A stretch of 64,000 nucleotides of DNA from a virus (IMGVR_UViG_2925282926_000001:1-64000), one strand, 5' to 3'. Positions 18,900-24,661 are shown, counted from the first letter of the stretch. A program made the numbers and translations. Notes: generated from the sequence alone by a model not told the origin.

Positions 18900-19274
18900 T
18901 CATTTGGTCACCGTCTTTCTTCTGGGTTTAGGCGCTGCTTTTAATCCGAGGCTGATCATTAATGGATGCTCCATCTGCTTCAAAATCTCAGGTGTGAGCG
19001 ACCCGAACTGGTAATCTAATCGGGTTTTGTCAATCGTCCGAATCTGCTCAAACATTACAACCGATGGTTTGCGCATCCCCTCTTTGATCCCGATAGGGAA
19101 GTGAGTCGGCATCAAGCGTTTGTCCTCACCATCTGTGATCGCTACAACAATGACTGTTGGGGAAAACTCATTGCCCACATCGTTCTGGATAACCAGACCC
19201 GGACGGTAACCCTGTTGTTCGCTCCCTTCGCCGTCTCCGTAATTGATCATGAACAGCCCACCGCGTTTGATCAT
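18900..19274 (-). CDS. PemK/MazF-family endoribonuclease
   Basis: GSEQQGYRPGLVIQNDVGN.FSPTVIV.AIT, EQIRTIDKTRL. Confidence 0.9.
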   Translation of the reverse strand: MIKRGGLFMINYGDGEGSEQQGYRPGLVIQNDVGNEFSPTVIVVAITDGEDKRLMPTHFPIGIKEGMRKPSVVMFEQIRTIDKTRLDYQFGSLTPEILKQMEHPLMISLGLKAAPKPRRKTVTK

Positions 19275-19525
19275 GTCAGTTGCGCCTCCAGCTCATCGAG
19301 TAATTGCGTGAAGTGCTGAACTAAATCCATTTGGTCATTGCACTGAGCGGCATAAGCAGCTTCTTTGTAACCATCTAACTTGTGGACCAAAGTGGCGTTA
19401 GCTTGCAGACAGTGCATTAACTCCATCCATTCGGCAGGTGGAAGTTTAAACGTTCCTCCTGTTTTTCCTGCTTTGATCGTCAGTTCTGCCAAGCGGCGAT
19501 GAACCGGGTGAATTGCGATAGACAT
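19271..19525 (-). CDS. Hypothetical protein
   Basis: ATGA-coupled to mazF-like gene. Confidence 0.6.
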   Translation of the reverse strand: MSIAIHPVHRRLAELTIKAGKTGGTFKLPPAEWMELMHCLQANATLVHKLDGYKEAAYAAQCNDQMDLVQHFTQLLDELEAQLT

Positions 19526-19550
19526 GTGTGTGTGCCCCTTTCAATTCGGT

Positions 19551-20018
19551 TTAATCTTCTGACCTAAGTTCGATCATGGCATCTACAATGACATCAACAA
19601 TTGCCTGTGCCTTTGGTTGATCTTCTTCTGTCAGGTCGTTTATTTTTGGGATACCGACCGTATTCCTCACTATCACGGACAACGCATTAATCATTTGATA
19701 TCGATTCGGTGAACTGAGAGGAGTAAGTCTTTCTAAAGCACTTTCCTTGATCGGTCTCCAAATCGCTGGACTTGTTTGATCAAGTTGAGTTAACGCCTTT
19801 TCCTGATCCTTCTTTTCTCCTAAAGGAAGCTTATTGAGTGCGTCTCTCAATTCTCGTAGCCCTTCTATGTTGTTGATGGAGAAGGAAGAAGCTGGCGTTT
19901 GTTTTCCTGTCTCAAAGTCCGAACATGCCACCTCCATAAGGTTCAAGGTGATTGCTGTACCTCGCTGTATGACTATCGCTGCCTGATCGTCAGTTAATGC
20001 AATTGCTTGTCGATTCAT
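19551..20018 (-). CDS. Hypothetical protein, possible ORF6C-like regulator
   Basis: Directly downstream of cro; GGGGTG RBS before ATG at 20018. Confidence 0.5.
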   Translation of the reverse strand: MNRQAIALTDDQAAIVIQRGTAITLNLMEVACSDFETGKQTPASSFSINNIEGLRELRDALNKLPLGEKKDQEKALTQLDQTSPAIWRPIKESALERLTPLSSPNRYQMINALSVIVRNTVGIPKINDLTEEDQPKAQAIVDVIVDAMIELRSED

Positions 20019-20057
20019 GTAACACCCCGTCTTTCTAAGAAAATACGGACAATCTAG

Positions 20058-20087
20058 TTGACTTTTCATACGGTTTTGCCGTATACT
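20058..20087 (+). promoter_or_regulatory. P_RE-like sigmaA promoter, antisense through cro towards cI, with palindrome ATACGG-N5-CCGTAT
   Basis: TTGACT-18bp-TATACT; palindrome at 20068-20084. Confidence 0.6.
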
Positions 20088-20100
20088 TCTATTAAAGTTA

Positions 20101-20517
20101 TTCCTAGATTCTAAGAATTCTTAGCCAAAAAAATTTCCTTCGGGTCTAACTCAAGACCTTCAATCTTACATAAGAGTTCAACTTCATCTGCGCTCATCAT
20201 AGAAGTCCCATCCATCAAGCGATAAAAACGCTTTTCAGGTATACCAGCTTTTGCTGAGATAGACTTCATAGAAGTGCCGGATGTAAGGATGTGAGCACGA
20301 ATGCGTTTGATCAAAGGAGTCAGGTAAGGTTTGCTTTTATCCTCAGCAACTTGACTCATTAGGTCACCTCCAATTCTTAGGTATTCTGTGTGAATTCCTA
20401 ATTTCTAAGAATCCGTGAGTCAAATATAACTCCTAGTATCTAAGAATGCAACCCCCTTTTTAAAATTAATTTTCTGATTATCCGAAAAACTAAGAATGGT
20501 TTCCATGTTTCTAGGAC
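20101..20517. promoter_or_regulatory. Immunity operators (TTCCTAG-N3-CTAAGAA-like) and leftward lytic promoter
   Basis: Copies at 20101-20117, 20395-20411, 20430-20446, weaker 20501-20517; minus-strand TTGCAT-17-TATATT at 20451-20423 spans the third copy. Confidence 0.7.
20111..20359 (-). CDS. Cro-like XRE HTH protein
   Basis: SMKSISAKAGIPEKRFYRLMDG; divergent from cI, first gene of the early operon. Confidence 0.75.
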   Translation of the reverse strand: MSQVAEDKSKPYLTPLIKRIRAHILTSGTSMKSISAKAGIPEKRFYRLMDGTSMMSADEVELLCKIEGLELDPKEIFLAKNS

Positions 20518-20559
20518 ATTATGGTAATATCAATAACCAAGGAGAGGTGAAGAAAAACC

Positions 20560-20943
20560 ATGCTCAAGTTGTACAGTGAACGCCTAAAAGAAGCGCGTTT
20601 AAAGGCGGGTTTGACACAAATTCAAGTGAGAGATCATACGGGGATCAACAACAAGACATTGAGTGGATACGAGAACAAAATCAGTGAACCGGATTATGAA
20701 ACATTAAAAGCATTGTGCGACTTATATGGAGTTACAACGGATTGGGTTTTGGGACACACAAATAACCCCCACAGCAAGTTAACCGAGGCTGAGAGGGTTA
20801 TGGTTGAAAAAGTGGAATTGAACGATGATTCTTTCATCAAGGGAGATTTTACTTTTGACGGAAAGGAACTGACAGAGGAACAGAAGCGCAAGCTACAGGC
20901 TATGGCTCGTCTACTTCTGAGTCAGTATCAACAAGGGAAATAA
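20560..20943 (+). CDS. CI-like XRE repressor lacking an S24 autopeptidase domain
   Basis: RLKEARLKAGLTQ..V...TGINNKTLSGYEN..SEPD..TL..LCDLYGVTTDWVLG. Confidence 0.85.
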   Translation: MLKLYSERLKEARLKAGLTQIQVRDHTGINNKTLSGYENKISEPDYETLKALCDLYGVTTDWVLGHTNNPHSKLTEAERVMVEKVELNDDSFIKGDFTFDGKELTEEQKRKLQAMARLLLSQYQQGK

Positions 20944-21025
20944 GAAACTCATCAATCAACTTTTGGTTTTCTGGCGTATCGGCTGCAATGGATTTCAAAA
21001 AATGCTCGGCATCAATGCTGTTCAT
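20900..21025 (-). CDS. 41-aa acidic protein, candidate SOS-inducible antirepressor (not in ORF track)
   Basis: MNSIDAEHFLKSIAADTPENQKLIDEFLISLVDTDSEVDEP; GGGGG RBS; TATAAT at 21061-21056. Confidence 0.5.
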   Translation of the reverse strand: MNSIDAEHFLKSIAADTPENQKLIDEFLISLVDTDSEVDEP

Positions 21026-21063
21026 AAGGCAAGACCCCCGGTATGTAGTATTGTAATTATATA

Positions 21064-21077
21064 CGAACGATTGTTCC
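21064..21077. promoter_or_regulatory. LexA (SOS/Cheo) box
   Basis: CGAACGATTGTTCC fits the Bacillus consensus CGAAC-N4-GTTYC. Confidence 0.75.
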
Positions 21078-21116
21078 TATGGAAGACTTAAAACTTAATA
21101 TGGAGGCATACATAAT

Positions 21117-21344
21117 ATGGCGCTTACCTTCGGGAAGTGCCTGTTGCGCGACATCCGCATCCAAGCCGGTTACACTCAGGATCAACTATCTGAGGCACTG
21201 CTTGAAGTGTGCGGATTAAATGTATCCACCACTCTATTGTCCTTTTACGAGACTAACAAGCGACCCATCCCAAGCCTTACTATGCGCGGGATCTGCATTA
21301 TTCTCGGATGCAATGAAAAGGACATATACGAGTGGCCGATGTAG
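21117..21344 (+). CDS. Small XRE HTH regulator
   Basis: GGAGG RBS; LRDIRIQAGYTQDQLS...LLSFYETNKR. Confidence 0.8.
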   Translation: MALTFGKCLLRDIRIQAGYTQDQLSEALLEVCGLNVSTTLLSFYETNKRPIPSLTMRGICIILGCNEKDIYEWPM

Positions 21345-21562
21345 CGTAACAGGCCGGGGCATTTACTGCTCCACCCGGAGGTTTTCTTTACCCCGTTGTA
21401 AAGTTGATTAAACGTCAACAGGAAATCATGTTCCTATTTCCCATTTAACCCCACATCACAAGATTTGTAAATTAAAATTGGGTCGTCCGAATTGAATCCA
21501 TTCGACACCACCATTCGACAACATATTACATTAGACTTGTGCTATAGTTTATAATCGAACGC

Positions 21563-21604
21563 AAAAAAGAGGGGCCCCCGCATTACGACGGAGGCCCCTC
21601 TTTT
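21563..21604. terminator. Bidirectional intrinsic terminator ending the agr-like operon
   Basis: AAAAAAGAGGGGCCCCCG..CGGAGGCCCCTCTTTT. Confidence 0.7.
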
Positions 21605-21999
21605 CATTGGAGTATTGGAACAAGTTTTTGTTGTTGTTTAGTCGCAACAGATAGTTCTTTTTCCAGATCGGTGTATCCTCTTGCGGACATAGAGCATCGC
21701 AATTCGTTTATTCTCCGGAACTTTTCGAAGTATGCATAATATGGCTTTGTCTCAGTCCGCCTTACCTTCATCACATTAACCGAATTATGCCGGTCTACGT
21801 CCATGAAATTTCCACCGCTGTTATTCATAACCTCAGTCCAATGCTCCTTGCTTCCCACAAAATAATAGGTTGCATCGGAAGTGTAAAAAGCGACCTTCCT
21901 ATACGTTTTTATATAAGAAAGATACAGTATGTCGGCGATCTTAACCTGAATAACATCGGTTTTTCCTTTATGATCAGCCAGAAGTGATACGTATTCCAT
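21604..21999 (-). CDS. Stand-alone LytTR DNA-binding protein (no receiver domain)
   Basis: IQVKIADILYL...VAFYT...NFMDVDRHNSVNVMKV is a divergent LytTR signature; only 131 aa. Confidence 0.8.
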   Translation of the reverse strand: MEYVSLLADHKGKTDVIQVKIADILYLSYIKTYRKVAFYTSDATYYFVGSKEHWTEVMNNSGGNFMDVDRHNSVNVMKVRRTETKPYYAYFEKFRRINELRCSMSARGYTDLEKELSVATKQQQKLVPILQ

Positions 22000-22014
22000 A
22001 TATGTTGTCCTCCA

Positions 22015-22143
22015 TTATTTTTTAAGCAAGTGTTGTGGTGGCTTAGGGTTGTTTACGAAGATCAAGCTTGCTGGCATTACAGACAGAGCTGCTACTGCAC
22101 CCAATCCAGTTGCGATTGCACCATAGATAGCTGTTTTAAACAT
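22015..22143 (-). CDS. agrD: AgrD-like cyclic lactone autoinducer precursor (not in ORF track)
   Basis: MFKTAIYGAIATGLGAVAALSVMPA-SLIFV-NNPKPPQHLLKK: hydrophobic leader, Ser-initiated pentapeptide, P-x-P..L tail; GGAGGTG RBS; overlaps the agrB stop. Confidence 0.85.
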   Translation of the reverse strand: MFKTAIYGAIATGLGAVAALSVMPASLIFVNNPKPPQHLLKK

Positions 22144-22678
22144 GTTTGTCACCTCCCTTCATGAAATGTTCGTTGGCTACTAATGTCAGAGCTTGTACGA
22201 AAAATGCTATTGCTGCCATAGACGATCCGAACCAAAGGTTTGATGCAACGATCAAAAAGGACACGATTTTAAGGGCTGGATAGAACCTCTCCGGAATACG
22301 GGTCTGGTTTTCAATTCCTGTTGGTGCATAGAAAAGCATAATAAACATACTGATTACTGTAAGGATAACAGTCCACTCTGAACCAATACTGAACATAGAC
22401 AGTGCAGTTGCTGCACCAGCCGTTATGATTGCGCACCCCATGCTTGTCTGTAGGTGTACTCCCCCTGAGAACAAGCGTAGAAAGGCAAAGCATTTTAACA
22501 GCATTACTGCTTCATTCAAACGACCAGTTGCCAAGCCTGCCAATACTGTTAAAACGACCACTGAAACAAAATTAAGAATAATGATTAGCGAGTGCCGCAT
22601 GCTGTCTTCTGGTACTGGGTGATTCGGAACTACTGACTTGATATGACGCGCCATTCTCCCCGCCACTACCTCAATCAA
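22136..22678 (-). CDS. agrB: AgrB-family peptide-processing membrane protease
   Basis: LRLFSGGVH...C catalytic pattern, YAP motif, several TM segments. Confidence 0.9.
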   Translation of the reverse strand: MIEVVAGRMARHIKSVVPNHPVPEDSMRHSLIIILNFVSVVVLTVLAGLATGRLNEAVMLLKCFAFLRLFSGGVHLQTSMGCAIITAGAATALSMFSIGSEWTVILTVISMFIMLFYAPTGIENQTRIPERFYPALKIVSFLIVASNLWFGSSMAAIAFFVQALTLVANEHFMKGGDKHV

Positions 22679-23256
22679 CGTGCTTCACGATCCTTTCTGA
22701 ATGCATAGTACAGAAACAGTGCAGATGCTCCCCCGAAAAACAATATGTTAGCCCATGACTCTTGCACGTACATTGTGATTGCAGTGAGTACGAATGCCGT
22801 AATAATGACGGTCACGACAATAGCTTTCTCTCGGGGGAGTTTCAGTTTTTGATATGGCGCCTCGATGCCCAAGCCGAATTTGTAGAGGAGATATGAAGCT
22901 ATTAAAAACAGAATACTTGTCACAAGCTGTAGGAGCTCTCCGCCAATTTTTTCAAATAGCAATGCTTGTGCAACTCCGTAGGGAAAGAATCCACTACCGG
23001 ATATAATTATTGACCATAGGATCGGAAGCCGAACAATAGTTGCAAGTATCAGGACATAGAACATTAAGTTTATCACCACAGCTAGAAATCCCAGATCTAG
23101 CCCTCGTAAGAAATGACTCTGCATGCCCATGAGTACAGACACTGACAGTGCCTGCCAGATGAATTCCATTGGATTCTCCCTGTATAACACCATCATGAAT
23201 ATAAATACCGTCAGTACTTCTATTGTTGAAAACAACATAAACGTGACCAGTTCCAT
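22675..23256 (-). CDS. Multi-pass membrane protein resembling an AgrC sensor region without kinase domain
   Basis: About 6-7 hydrophobic helices, no H-box or ATPase motifs; coupled to agrB. Confidence 0.65.
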   Translation of the reverse strand: MELVTFMLFSTIEVLTVFIFMMVLYRENPMEFIWQALSVSVLMGMQSHFLRGLDLGFLAVVINLMFYVLILATIVRLPILWSIIISGSGFFPYGVAQALLFEKIGGELLQLVTSILFLIASYLLYKFGLGIEAPYQKLKLPREKAIVVTVIITAFVLTAITMYVQESWANILFFGGASALFLYYAFRKDREAR

Positions 23257-23271
23257 CGTGCCTTATCCCCT

Positions 23272-23586
23272 TTATTCTGGCTTGTCTTTGCTACGCCACT
23301 CTTCCATGCGCTCTTGGTACTCATCAATCGACGGTTTAAACCAGAACGGCCTTGTCCCAACCATAACGTCAGGCTCTGGGAACATCTTGTTTTTGCGCAC
23401 ATGATGCATGTTCTTTGGGTCTGCGCCAATCTGTTCTGCTACTTCCTTACTCCCCAGGAGAGGTGGGTACTTTTTACCACGTATGATCTGTCTGGACTCT
23501 TCTAACTCTTCGACCAGTGCAGCGATCCGTTCTCCGACCTCTCCTCCCAGTTGGTCCGCCAAATCTCGGTACTGATTCAAGGTCAA
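23272..23586 (-). CDS. AlpA/MerR-superfamily HTH DNA-binding protein, first gene of the agr-like operon
   Basis: LLGSKEVAEQIG...FPEPD..VGTRPFW; AGGAGG RBS before TTG. Confidence 0.7.
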   Translation of the reverse strand: MTLNQYRDLADQLGGEVGERIAALVEELEESRQIIRGKKYPPLLGSKEVAEQIGADPKNMHHVRKNKMFPEPDVMVGTRPFWFKPSIDEYQERMEEWRSKDKPE

Positions 23587-23628
23587 TGCTCATACCTCCT
23601 TAATTTTCCTGTTTGTTTGTCTGCCATA

Positions 23629-23657
23629 AATATACGGTAAAGCCGTATGTATTGCAA
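23629..23657 (-). promoter_or_regulatory. sigmaA promoter of the agr-like operon with ATACGG-N5-CCGTAT operator
   Basis: TTGCAA-17bp-TATATT; palindrome at 23632-23648. Confidence 0.7.
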
Positions 23658-23746
23658 GAAGTATTTTCCTGATTCCCATAATAAATATAGAAACATTTTC
23701 CTAGTTCTGTTAGACTATACCCAAAACGTTCGAAGGGGAAATAACT

Positions 23747-23953
23747 ATGCGCTATTTACTTTGTTTCTTGCCACCACTTGCAGTATTGTCCTGTGGTAAA
23801 GTTGGTCAGTTCTTGCTTAGCTGTATCCTAACGCTATTCTTTTATGTTCCTGGTGTCATCCACGCCATATTGGTCGTTAACTCCTACAACGCAGATAAAC
23901 GTAACGACAAGCTTATCCGCGCCATTCAACATCAGCAGCGTCCACCAGTTTAA
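23747..23953 (+). CDS. YqaE/Pmp3-family small membrane protein
   Basis: MRYLLCFLPPLAVLSCGK..Q..L..ILTL..YVPGVIHA. Confidence 0.85.
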   Translation: MRYLLCFLPPLAVLSCGKVGQFLLSCILTLFFYVPGVIHAILVVNSYNADKRNDKLIRAIQHQQRPPV

Positions 23954-23966
23954 ACTATCTACTACA

Positions 23967-24006
23967 TAAAACGCCCGTATCCATTCTCTCTGGATCGGGC
24001 GTTTAC
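23967..24006. terminator. Bidirectional terminator
   Basis: TAAAACGCCCG..CGGGCGTTTA between convergent genes. Confidence 0.6.
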
Positions 24007-24012
24007 TATTAT

Positions 24013-24348
24013 TTAAGTGGTAGCCGACATAATATCAGCGATTTTTATATACTTCCAATCTTTATCAGGAAAAACAAGTTTGATTTCCATTCGAACCGTG
24101 TTTACAACAGATACAACACCCTCATACATCTTATCCTCTATTGGATCGAATTCAGTGATCTGTATACGTAACCGTTGATGAAAGGAATCATTTATTGCCC
24201 CTTGAATTAATTGCATCTCCTGTTCATCCAGAATCGGTTTTTCCTTCTCCAATGCTTTCGCTTGATGCTCAAGCCAGGCCTCCCTGTGCTCAGGCAATAT
24301 CATCCGAGATGACTCAAACAATCCGTTTCCCGCCAACTTGCTACTCAT
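24013..24348 (-). CDS. YolD-like protein
   Basis: KLAGNGLFESSRMILPEHRE...KPILDEQE. Confidence 0.85.
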   Translation of the reverse strand: MSSKLAGNGLFESSRMILPEHREAWLEHQAKALEKEKPILDEQEMQLIQGAINDSFHQRLRIQITEFDPIEDKMYEGVVSVVNTVRMEIKLVFPDKDWKYIKIADIMSATT

Positions 24349-24361
24349 AATAAGCGCCCCC

Positions 24362-24661
24362 TTAGTATTGAGTCCAATAGTCAGTATTACTGTTGTTGAC
24401 TGGCGGCTTCCTGTGCTCAACCTTAGGACGTTCTCCCTCTCGTTCCCAACCTTCCAAAATGACTAGATTAGCCGTATCCGACTTATCCTCCCAATGTATG
24501 TATCGTGCAGTTATTAGAGCCTCCAGTGCGTCCATAACGTCTGCTTTATACTTGCCTGTTTTAACGGTTAATTCGTGGACAGTAGGAAAACGCCGCCGTC
24601 CGCTTTTGTAGTTATATAAGATCCGTAACACCTTTCGCTCGTAATCAGATAACATATTCAT
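24362..24661 (-). CDS. SOS-regulated winged-helix protein
   Basis: LSDYERKVLRILYN...RFPTVHEL..KTG; AGGAGG RBS. Confidence 0.65.
   Translation of the reverse strand: MNMLSDYERKVLRILYNYKSGRRRFPTVHELTVKTGKYKADVMDALEALITARYIHWEDKSDTANLVILEGWEREGERPKVEHRKPPVNNSNTDYWTQY

Follow-up and report, generated by a model that had tools for sequence, protein, structure and literature searches.

The locus described here was analysed in a stretch of 64,000 nucleotides, hereafter the window (IMGVR_UViG_2925282926_000001:1-64000), which is part of a 123-kb provirus record and belongs to a Paenibacillus prophage. It associates a cI/cro-type switch with an agr-type peptide cassette, and its features are the following, in coordinates of the window.

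19551-20018, minus strand: gene of a 155-aa protein of unknown function, located after cro and site 1, ahead of DUF7667 and the remaining genes of the early operon
20058-20087, plus strand: P_as, predicted antisense promoter (-35 at 20058-20063, 18-nt spacer, -10 at 20082-20087, predicted start at about 20094)
20068-20084, unstranded: site 1, putative 17-bp palindromic operator (6+5+6) in the P_as spacer, overlapping the -10
20100-20118, unstranded: O_D, operator of the CI/Cro type that overlaps the stop codon of cro and covers about +7 to +25 of P_as
20111-20359, minus strand: 82-aa cro-like gene at the head of the early operon, with syntenic homologues and without a Pfam match
20373-20498, unstranded: cI-cro intergenic operators, 4-5 copies of the O_D type, with divergent P_R-like and P_RM-like promoters
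20560-20943, plus strand: cI-like repressor, 127 aa, with an XRE-type HTH (Pfam HTH_3, 9e-14; phrog_8, phrog_3)
21117-21344, plus strand: XRE75, second small XRE-type HTH protein, 75 aa, which converges with cI on the cassette
21604-21999, minus strand: stand-alone LytTR-domain protein, 131 aa, encoded at the end of the cassette and without a receiver domain (E 2.6e-4 for Pfam LytTR, slightly short of the cut-off)
22015-22152, minus strand: AgrD-like propeptide gene, about 42-45 aa, overlapping the 3' end of the AgrB gene and conserved in relatives
22136-22678, minus strand: AgrB-family peptidase, 180 aa (Pfam AgrB, 2.5e-16)
22675-23256, minus strand: multi-pass membrane protein, 193 aa, without a Pfam match, candidate kinase-less AgrC-type sensor module
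23272-23586, minus strand: HTH104, 104 aa, first gene of the cassette
23629-23657, minus strand: P_agr, predicted promoter of the HTH104-agr operon (-35 at 23657-23652, 17-nt spacer, -10 at 23634-23629, predicted start at about 23622)
23632-23648, unstranded: site 2, putative 17-bp palindromic operator in the spacer and -10 of P_agr
24013-24420, minus strand: YolD-like gene, upstream of P_agr

The cI product resembles an RstR-type repressor of NCBIfam, under the family cut-off. The generic 'CII-like' label of phrog_4836 comes down to a weak match, to cI itself only, and no CII homologue was seen. The cro-like role of the 82-aa protein was deduced from the position of its gene, divergent from cI. 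The initial annotation had placed a CI/Cro-type operator at 20101-20117, just after the predicted start of P_as, and this assignment is confirmed by the repetition of the 19-mer 20100-20118 at 20394-20412 and 20429-20447, to which is added a related 18-mer at 20481-20498; all the repeats are located in the cI-cro intergenic region, and the window holds four copies. Among the relatives, the palindrome equivalent to O_D matches the intergenic operators of its own locus in 7 of the 8 loci examined, its sequence varying with the immunity type; in L132, no O_D equivalent matches the locus's own intergenic operators at 14 or more of 17 positions.

In the lactococcal phage TP901-1, O_D is a third CI site located beyond the first lytic gene. 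We take the window element at 20100-20118 to resemble this distal operator, as it is of the CI type, stands just beyond the cro-equivalent gene and repeats the intergenic operators. Unlike its TP901-1 counterpart, it covers positions +7 to +25 of an antisense promoter, and it could act as a roadblock to P_as in addition to serving as a looping partner. In L126, a terminator-like hairpin with a T-run in the lytic direction (L126:10397-10412) marks the 3' end of cro and immediately precedes O_D and P_as; the T-run is kept in most of the relatives (not in L132 and L133) and doubles as codons for the C-terminal Phe residues of Cro. Some 120-127-aa genes of the early operon are recorded as PemK_toxin (MazF-like) in relatives (L150:9154-9537, L151:9248-9610, L168:6085-6459 and L169:6320-6700), and a 124-aa ORF of the window (18900-19274) corresponds to the L168 gene by synteny only.

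The peptide cassette is organised in the order HTH104, membrane protein, AgrB, AgrD and LytTR. The AgrD-like ORF is placed as in Brevibacillus phage Abouo, whose counterpart bears the annotation of cyclic lactone autoinducer peptide, and the LytTR-protein homologues of L148, L150 and L151 have LytTR in their records. In the Atlas structure model, about 190 residues of the membrane protein align with the N-terminal membrane portion of HATPase_c_5 (AgrC-type) sensor kinases of 422 aa (TM 0.64 by query); as a lead only, this predicted similarity suggests a sensor module deprived of its kinase. Compared with the canonical AgrBDCA system, AgrB and AgrD are present here, whereas an AgrC kinase and an AgrA protein of the receiver-LytTR type are not: the membrane protein has no histidine kinase domain and the LytTR protein no receiver domain. 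No TPR or AimR-like domain was found in the ten ORFs scanned, and the Rfam search of 19000-24500 returned nothing relevant. The same succession of membrane protein, AgrB, small peptide and small LytTR-like protein occurs in the lysogeny region of the Brevibacillus phages Abouo (gp44-47) and Davies and of the Paenibacillus larvae phages Harrison and Paisley, whose AgrB proteins share 28-33% identity with that of the window; the Abouo cassette differs by the absence of an HTH104-type gene in front. The annotation of agr-like cassettes in phages goes back to phiCDHM1 (PMC3901668), and our search of titles and abstract openings returned nothing on such a cassette in Paenibacillus phages or on its wiring to the switch.

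Directly after the LytTR gene, the Rfam model ctRNA_p42d matches the minus strand at 21561-21601 with 30.8 bits for a threshold of 50, and this match is most likely just the terminator hairpin of the operon. At the other end of the cassette, the 9-mer CAGGAAAAT occurs three times on the minus strand around P_agr (23603-23611, 23663-23671 and 23695-23703, one copy having one mismatch), at about +19, -41 and -73 from the predicted start, with just one further exact copy in the 64 kb. The copy abutting the -35 of P_agr is conserved in L123, L125 and L130, and the repeats might be bound by a second regulator, such as the LytTR protein.

The promoter of the cassette and the promoter directed at the switch carry the same palindrome. 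The initial annotation had described a promoter on the plus strand (TTGACT-18-TATACT, 20058-20087) and another on the minus strand (TTGCAA-17-TATATT, 23657-23629), each containing a nearly identical palindromic 19-mer in the same register against the -10 box. These coordinates and strands are correct, the two 19-mers (20067-20085, plus; 23649-23631, minus) agree at 17 of 19 positions, and both contain a perfect 6+5+6 palindrome, ATACGG-N5-CCGTAT (20068-20084 and 23632-23648), whose final three bases open the -10 hexamer in the two promoters, so that the register is identical. With at most one mismatch the palindrome is found twice in the window, for 0.09 matches expected, and none of 100 shuffles yielded two; the degenerate consensus of its family scanned over the window, as well as the exact palindrome searched in the entire 123-kb record, point to the same two places only. 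Sites 1 and 2 are real and non-random. Their half-site centres, as read from the sequence, are 11 bp apart, a spacing that would suit a dimer bound along a single face of the helix.

A fortuitous match, or palindromes acting as RNA hairpins or terminators, is an explanation to which we grant next to no probability. A simple scan does designate 20068-20084 as terminator-like on the plus strand, and the hairpins of the palindromes fold better than shuffles (z about -3), but their stems are of just 6-7 bp (about -8 kcal/mol) without a U-run in the gene direction, and no plus-strand gene ends at 20068-20084. This explanation is effectively refuted by the comparative data, since both positions are conserved with oriented hexamers in 18 loci, in addition to the excess of matches over expectation.

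The comparison relies on 22 loci with an HTH104 homologue (41-98% identity), which come from viral contigs, genomes and metagenomes as well as from Logan assemblies, the metagenome scan contributing two of them; L123, L124 and L168 originate from assemblies of P. taichungensis, P. hubeiensis and P. amylolyticus. The synteny HTH104, membrane protein, AgrB, AgrD, LytTR, XRE75, cI and cro is conserved across the collected loci. Site 2 is present in 22/22, always with a 17-nt spacer between a TTG-type -35 and the -10, and it forms a conserved island amid diverged upstream DNA. Site 1 is found in all 18 loci that possess HTH104, this type of cI/cro and enough sequence to judge, with one mismatch in L131, a count to be read with the close relationship of many of these loci in mind (12 distinct site-1 haplotypes in the first 16). 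The reading of the initial annotation, which called for conservation at both positions in relatives, thus comes through this comparison. When the half-sites of diverged loci vary, they do so symmetrically: position 6 is altered in both arms of site 2 in L126, and positions 4 and 6 are altered in both arms of site 2 in L135, where the position-4 change is also found in site 1. The covariation between the two sites is not strict, because half-site position 6 differs between the two sites of L126.

Additional operator copies accompany site 2 in several diverged relatives. A partial second operator is located 22 bp upstream, overlapping the -35, in L132, L133, L135, L150 and L151, and a full second operator is located 37 bp downstream, just before the ribosome-binding site, in L149 (L149:4588-4604). 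The arrangement of these copies, of a kind met with cooperative repressors, suggests that two dimers may bind cooperatively.

The two predicted promoters have the attributes of sigma-A promoters, with near-consensus hexamers 16-18 nt apart and a conserved orientation. P_agr scores 9/12, has a weak -35 and keeps its 17-nt spacer in all loci. P_as is the top sigma-70-type match within 19000-24500 (10/12), and it ranks first among the promoters of the switch region in L149 and joint first in L126. Since its -10 ends at 20087, ahead of the minus-strand cro gene (20111-20359) and of the plus-strand cI gene, which starts at 20560, P_as lies directly 3' of cro and is aimed through cro, in antisense, at cI; the same layout is found in 18 loci. 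Across these loci its -35 opens with TTG in 18/18, its spacer measures 17-18 nt in every case, and its -10 matches the consensus at 5/6 or 6/6 positions for a total of 8-11/12 (mean 10.1/12), the palindrome itself dictating part of the -10 and hence of its score. Two other assignments of site 1 were rejected. A promoter in the lytic direction reaches a mean of 7.2/12, mostly derived from the palindrome, with a TTG -35 in 0/18 loci, and a link with the downstream 155-aa gene is contradicted by L126, L135 and L131, which have site 1 without that gene.

P_as had been called P_RE-like in the initial annotation, a label that is appropriate for one of its two aspects. Its position beyond cro and its antisense direction towards cI are indeed those of lambda P_RE and of pE of coliphage 186, which likewise stand apart from the maintenance promoter. 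The activator dependence implied by the label, on the other hand, does not fit: lambda P_RE is intrinsically weak and needs a CII tetramer bound on direct repeats straddling its -35, whereas P_as is near consensus (10-11/12), has an inverted-repeat operator in its spacer and -10 and a CI-type operator after its predicted start, and therefore looks negatively controlled, that is, repressed rather than dependent on an activator.

The geometry of the region also bears on what P_as would do. P_as faces P_R head-on at a distance of about 380 bp, its predicted transcript is antisense to the entire cro gene and without an ORF (the window contains no plus-strand ORF of at least 40 aa from P_as to cI), cI is equipped with an extended -10 promoter and a ribosome-binding site of its own, and site 1 and O_D are located exactly between cro and the remaining early operon in all loci. 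P_as could be seen as yielding mainly an antisense RNA, a convergent interference or both, which would damp cro and the early operon, or else the protein bound at site 1 and O_D could be a roadblock to read-through from P_R; we judge this possibility rather improbable. No terminator is predicted in the direction of P_as up to cI in the window, in L126 or in L149, so that read-through into cI is the default expectation, and the conservation of oriented hexamers argues against a pure roadblock. The arrival of P_as transcripts at cI, which we infer from this organisation, and an antisense or interference effect overlap in that both would act as a pro-lysogenic brake; it is the target that differs.

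The identity of the protein that binds the palindrome can be approached with the help of natural controls. The chromosome of P. shirakamiensis (L127:6930-8600) carries a four-gene cassette composed of HTH104, the membrane protein, AgrB and an AgrD-like ORF, flanked by PPIase and bPH_2 genes on one side and by scpA/scpB on the other, in a neighbourhood of housekeeping genes to which GerA and a pyridoxal-dependent decarboxylase also belong. No phage genes surround it, and LytTR, XRE75, cI and cro are absent from the locus; single-protein searches of the same genome with LytTR and XRE75 gave nothing. L127 nevertheless retains site 2, with one mismatch and the same promoter architecture, and its cassette may represent either a bacterial forerunner of the phage cassette or what remains of one. 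L129 possesses the full cassette and site 2 together with another immunity module, and it is without site 1. Conversely, L155 (cI 40% and cro 46% identity) and the more distant L156 have relatives of cI and cro without the cassette; they keep an O_D-like palindrome at the cro stop and show neither the shared palindrome nor the antisense promoter, with only about 15 nt separating cro from the next gene in L155. These comparisons, which comprise few negative controls (a single locus with swapped immunity, plus two switches without the cassette, of which one is distant), show P_as and its operator as an add-on restricted to the loci that pair the cassette with this type of switch.

The palindrome is not that of a host regulon either: in five Paenibacillus host genomes, no exact copy beyond sites 1 and 2 is embedded in a promoter, all the others being located within long ORFs or in a terminator stem. 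Taken together with L127, L129, L155 and L156, the host genomes argue for HTH104 as the probable binder and against the LytTR protein, XRE75, CI/Cro and a host factor. The helix-turn-helix protein heading the agr operon was already the preferred regulator in the initial annotation, with the LytTR protein and XRE75 as alternatives, and it is the sole DNA-binding protein that co-occurs with the palindrome everywhere, L127 and L129 included, although co-occurrence alone does not separate HTH104 from an unrecognised partner or a host factor.

Binding by one of these other proteins, HTH104 being merely the first downstream gene, is in our opinion quite unlikely. LytTR and XRE75 do co-occur with both sites in almost all the phage loci, and in some of them the extra upstream copy produces a repeat with a period of 22 bp, which LytTR proteins use as well. 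However, LytTR proteins bind direct and not inverted repeats, L127 and L129 maintain site 2 in spite of the absence of these candidates in the former and of a different cI/cro in the latter, CI and Cro have separate operators of their own, and the host genomes hold no further promoter-embedded copies.

HTH104 would be suited to such a role by its predicted fold. In the AlphaFold2 model (pLDDT 87.8), a winged helix-turn-helix is framed by a long helix at the N-terminus and another helix at the C-terminus, and PHROGs assigns the protein to the DNA-binding proteins (phrog_597, 4e-10). Foldseek aligns the region of residues 42-100, approximately, with RacA, BldC, CarH, BmrR, RdfS and GlnR, with probabilities of 0.84-1.00 and TM values by target of up to 0.67 but E-values of only 0.015 or worse; TraN and a viral DNA-packaging motor are the non-MerR/Xis entries among the matches listed. 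NCBIfam Xis_Gifsy_1 matches residues 43-102 with 23.9 bits, for a family cut-off of 60. The MerR-superfamily type of HTH claimed in the initial annotation is thus in keeping with what AlphaFold2, Foldseek and, under its cut-off, NCBIfam predict as a MerR/Xis-type winged helix, while Pfam run on 19 HTH104 members with E up to 1 gave no MerR, HTH_17 or similar family, and no sequence relative was found in the PDB. The homologues come from Paenibacillus only (20 protein clusters, 54-92% identity), and no match exists in the deposited phage collection. Inspected by eye for residue-to-base covariation between the recognition helix and the half-site variants, the alignment of the homologues offers too few independent changes to be of use. 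The DNA-binding domains of RacA, BldC, RdfS and CarH/BmrR, which the predicted fold resembles, use short palindromic or repeated sites; HTH104 differs from the proteins of the MerR superfamily in that its dimerising helix is N-terminal and not C-terminal, and it has no effector-binding domain.

The model we propose, and to which we give somewhat better than an even chance, is that both palindromes are the operators of HTH104 dimers repressing their own operon and P_as; the identity of the binder and the sign of the regulation are what we infer from the arrangement of the sites. In otherwise competent sigma-A promoters with spacers of 17-18 nt, the operator takes up the spacer and the initial half of the -10. 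Its occupancy should exclude RNA polymerase, and in promoters whose spacing is already optimal repression is the simplest effect of binding. HTH104 would thereby repress its own operon, which encodes the AgrB/AgrD peptide module, the sensor-like membrane protein and the LytTR protein, and it would also repress P_as, a promoter predicted to be strong and to fire back through cro to cI. The binding of CI at O_D would be a second input that also shuts P_as, so that P_as, placed under HTH104 and CI, would be active only when both are low. The interpretation advanced in the initial annotation, namely that one regulator serves both promoters, is supported at the level of sequence comparison.

The MerR-like fold raises the converse hypothesis, in which HTH104 would bind the two sites as an activator, in the MerR manner or by recruiting polymerase, so that the peptide cassette would be under positive feedback and cI would be boosted as by CII. 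The classic members of the superfamily sit in promoter spacers and activate, the -35 of P_agr is weak, and an activation whereby the cassette and cI rise together would make simple biological sense. We nonetheless find this hypothesis unlikely. MerR-style activation requires spacers of 19-20 nt, whereas those of P_agr (17 nt) and P_as (17-18 nt) are shorter in all loci; P_as is already at 10-11/12 of the consensus and its operator covers part of the -10; and the domain order of HTH104 is reversed with respect to the MerR family, the long helix coming first and the winged helix-turn-helix second.

Under repression by HTH104, a question of logic arises: a cI-directed promoter would be repressed by a protein that shares an operon with a lysogeny-style signal, an arrangement that makes no evident sense if the activity of the repressor is not modulated. 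The gene content of the four-gene L127 cassette and the AgrC-like model of the membrane protein lead to the speculation that the membrane protein relays the peptide signal to HTH104. HTH104 would then be the output regulator of a kinase-free agr-type circuit, in which the AgrC-like membrane protein would sense the cyclic peptide of the phage and, for example, sequester or release HTH104, the extracellular peptide concentration thereby directly setting the activity of P_as and hence the establishment of CI. We advance this coupling of HTH104 to the peptide as a tentative and on balance doubtful extension of the model.

The proposed wiring may be compared with two known types of peptide signalling. 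The arbitrium system of the SPbeta-like Bacillus phages (AimR-AimP-AimX) likewise has a peptide cassette adjoining the immunity region and an operator of its regulator that ties the cassette to the lysis-lysogeny decision. AimR, however, is a TPR peptide receptor, the arbitrium peptide is linear and the output is aimX, whereas the present locus has an AgrB/AgrD module of the cyclic-peptide type, a 104-aa winged-helix protein and two operators, one of them autoregulatory, with a promoter aimed at cro/cI as the output; the two systems share no component. Staphylococcal agr and the LytTR systems HdrRM and BrsRM, on the other hand, have in common with the locus an AgrB/AgrD module (in the case of agr), a LytTR-domain protein and an adjacent membrane protein. 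At the staphylococcal P2/P3 promoters, AgrA acts on direct repeats located upstream of the -35 and exerts a positive feedback, in contrast with the inverted repeat located here in the spacer and with the negative feedback that it would mediate.

The interest of the model lies first in its being a concrete and falsifiable wire: one 17-bp operator is common to the promoter of the cassette and to a conserved promoter directed at cro and cI, a single small protein is the candidate regulator, and nature provides controls, namely a swapped immunity module, switches without the cassette and a cassette on a chromosome. The model also draws attention to an antisense promoter of the establishment type that, in a Gram-positive phage switch, would be gated by repression and not by a CII-like activator. 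If HTH104 responds to the peptide, the locus would constitute a new phage communication system; if it does not, it would still represent a compact two-input control of repressor establishment by HTH104 and CI. Should the kinase-free agr-type circuit prove true, it would give arbitrium a second counterpart, unrelated to it in chemistry, whose bacterial ancestor would be visible as the four-gene cassette of P. shirakamiensis.

Some of the relatives and of the scanned contigs display further particularities. Genes with ALP_N (ParM-type), FtsK/SpoIIIE ATPase and Replic_Relax domains precede the cassette in L149:1296-4490, L150:996-4164 and L151:761-4014, and these are plasmid- or ICE-like maintenance functions standing where many phages would have an integrase. 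A prophage of P. amylolyticus contains a gene for a 430-aa PIN_8-domain protein between LytTR and XRE75 (L168:2461-3753); the distance from operator to operator is about 5.0 kb there, compared with about 3.6, and both sites are kept. A scan of the pattern across the viral contig collection returned mostly unrelated chance matches. Several unrelated and GC-richer viral contigs nevertheless carry 2-3 copies of the same 6+5+6 palindrome (L113:2119-2170, L118:5480-5531, L006:3763-3812 and L022:6291-7830), some of which overlap a -10-like hexamer. No homologue of HTH104 or of the other query proteins of the window was found by tblastn in these contigs, whose palindromes may be operators of unrelated regulators with a convergent specificity.
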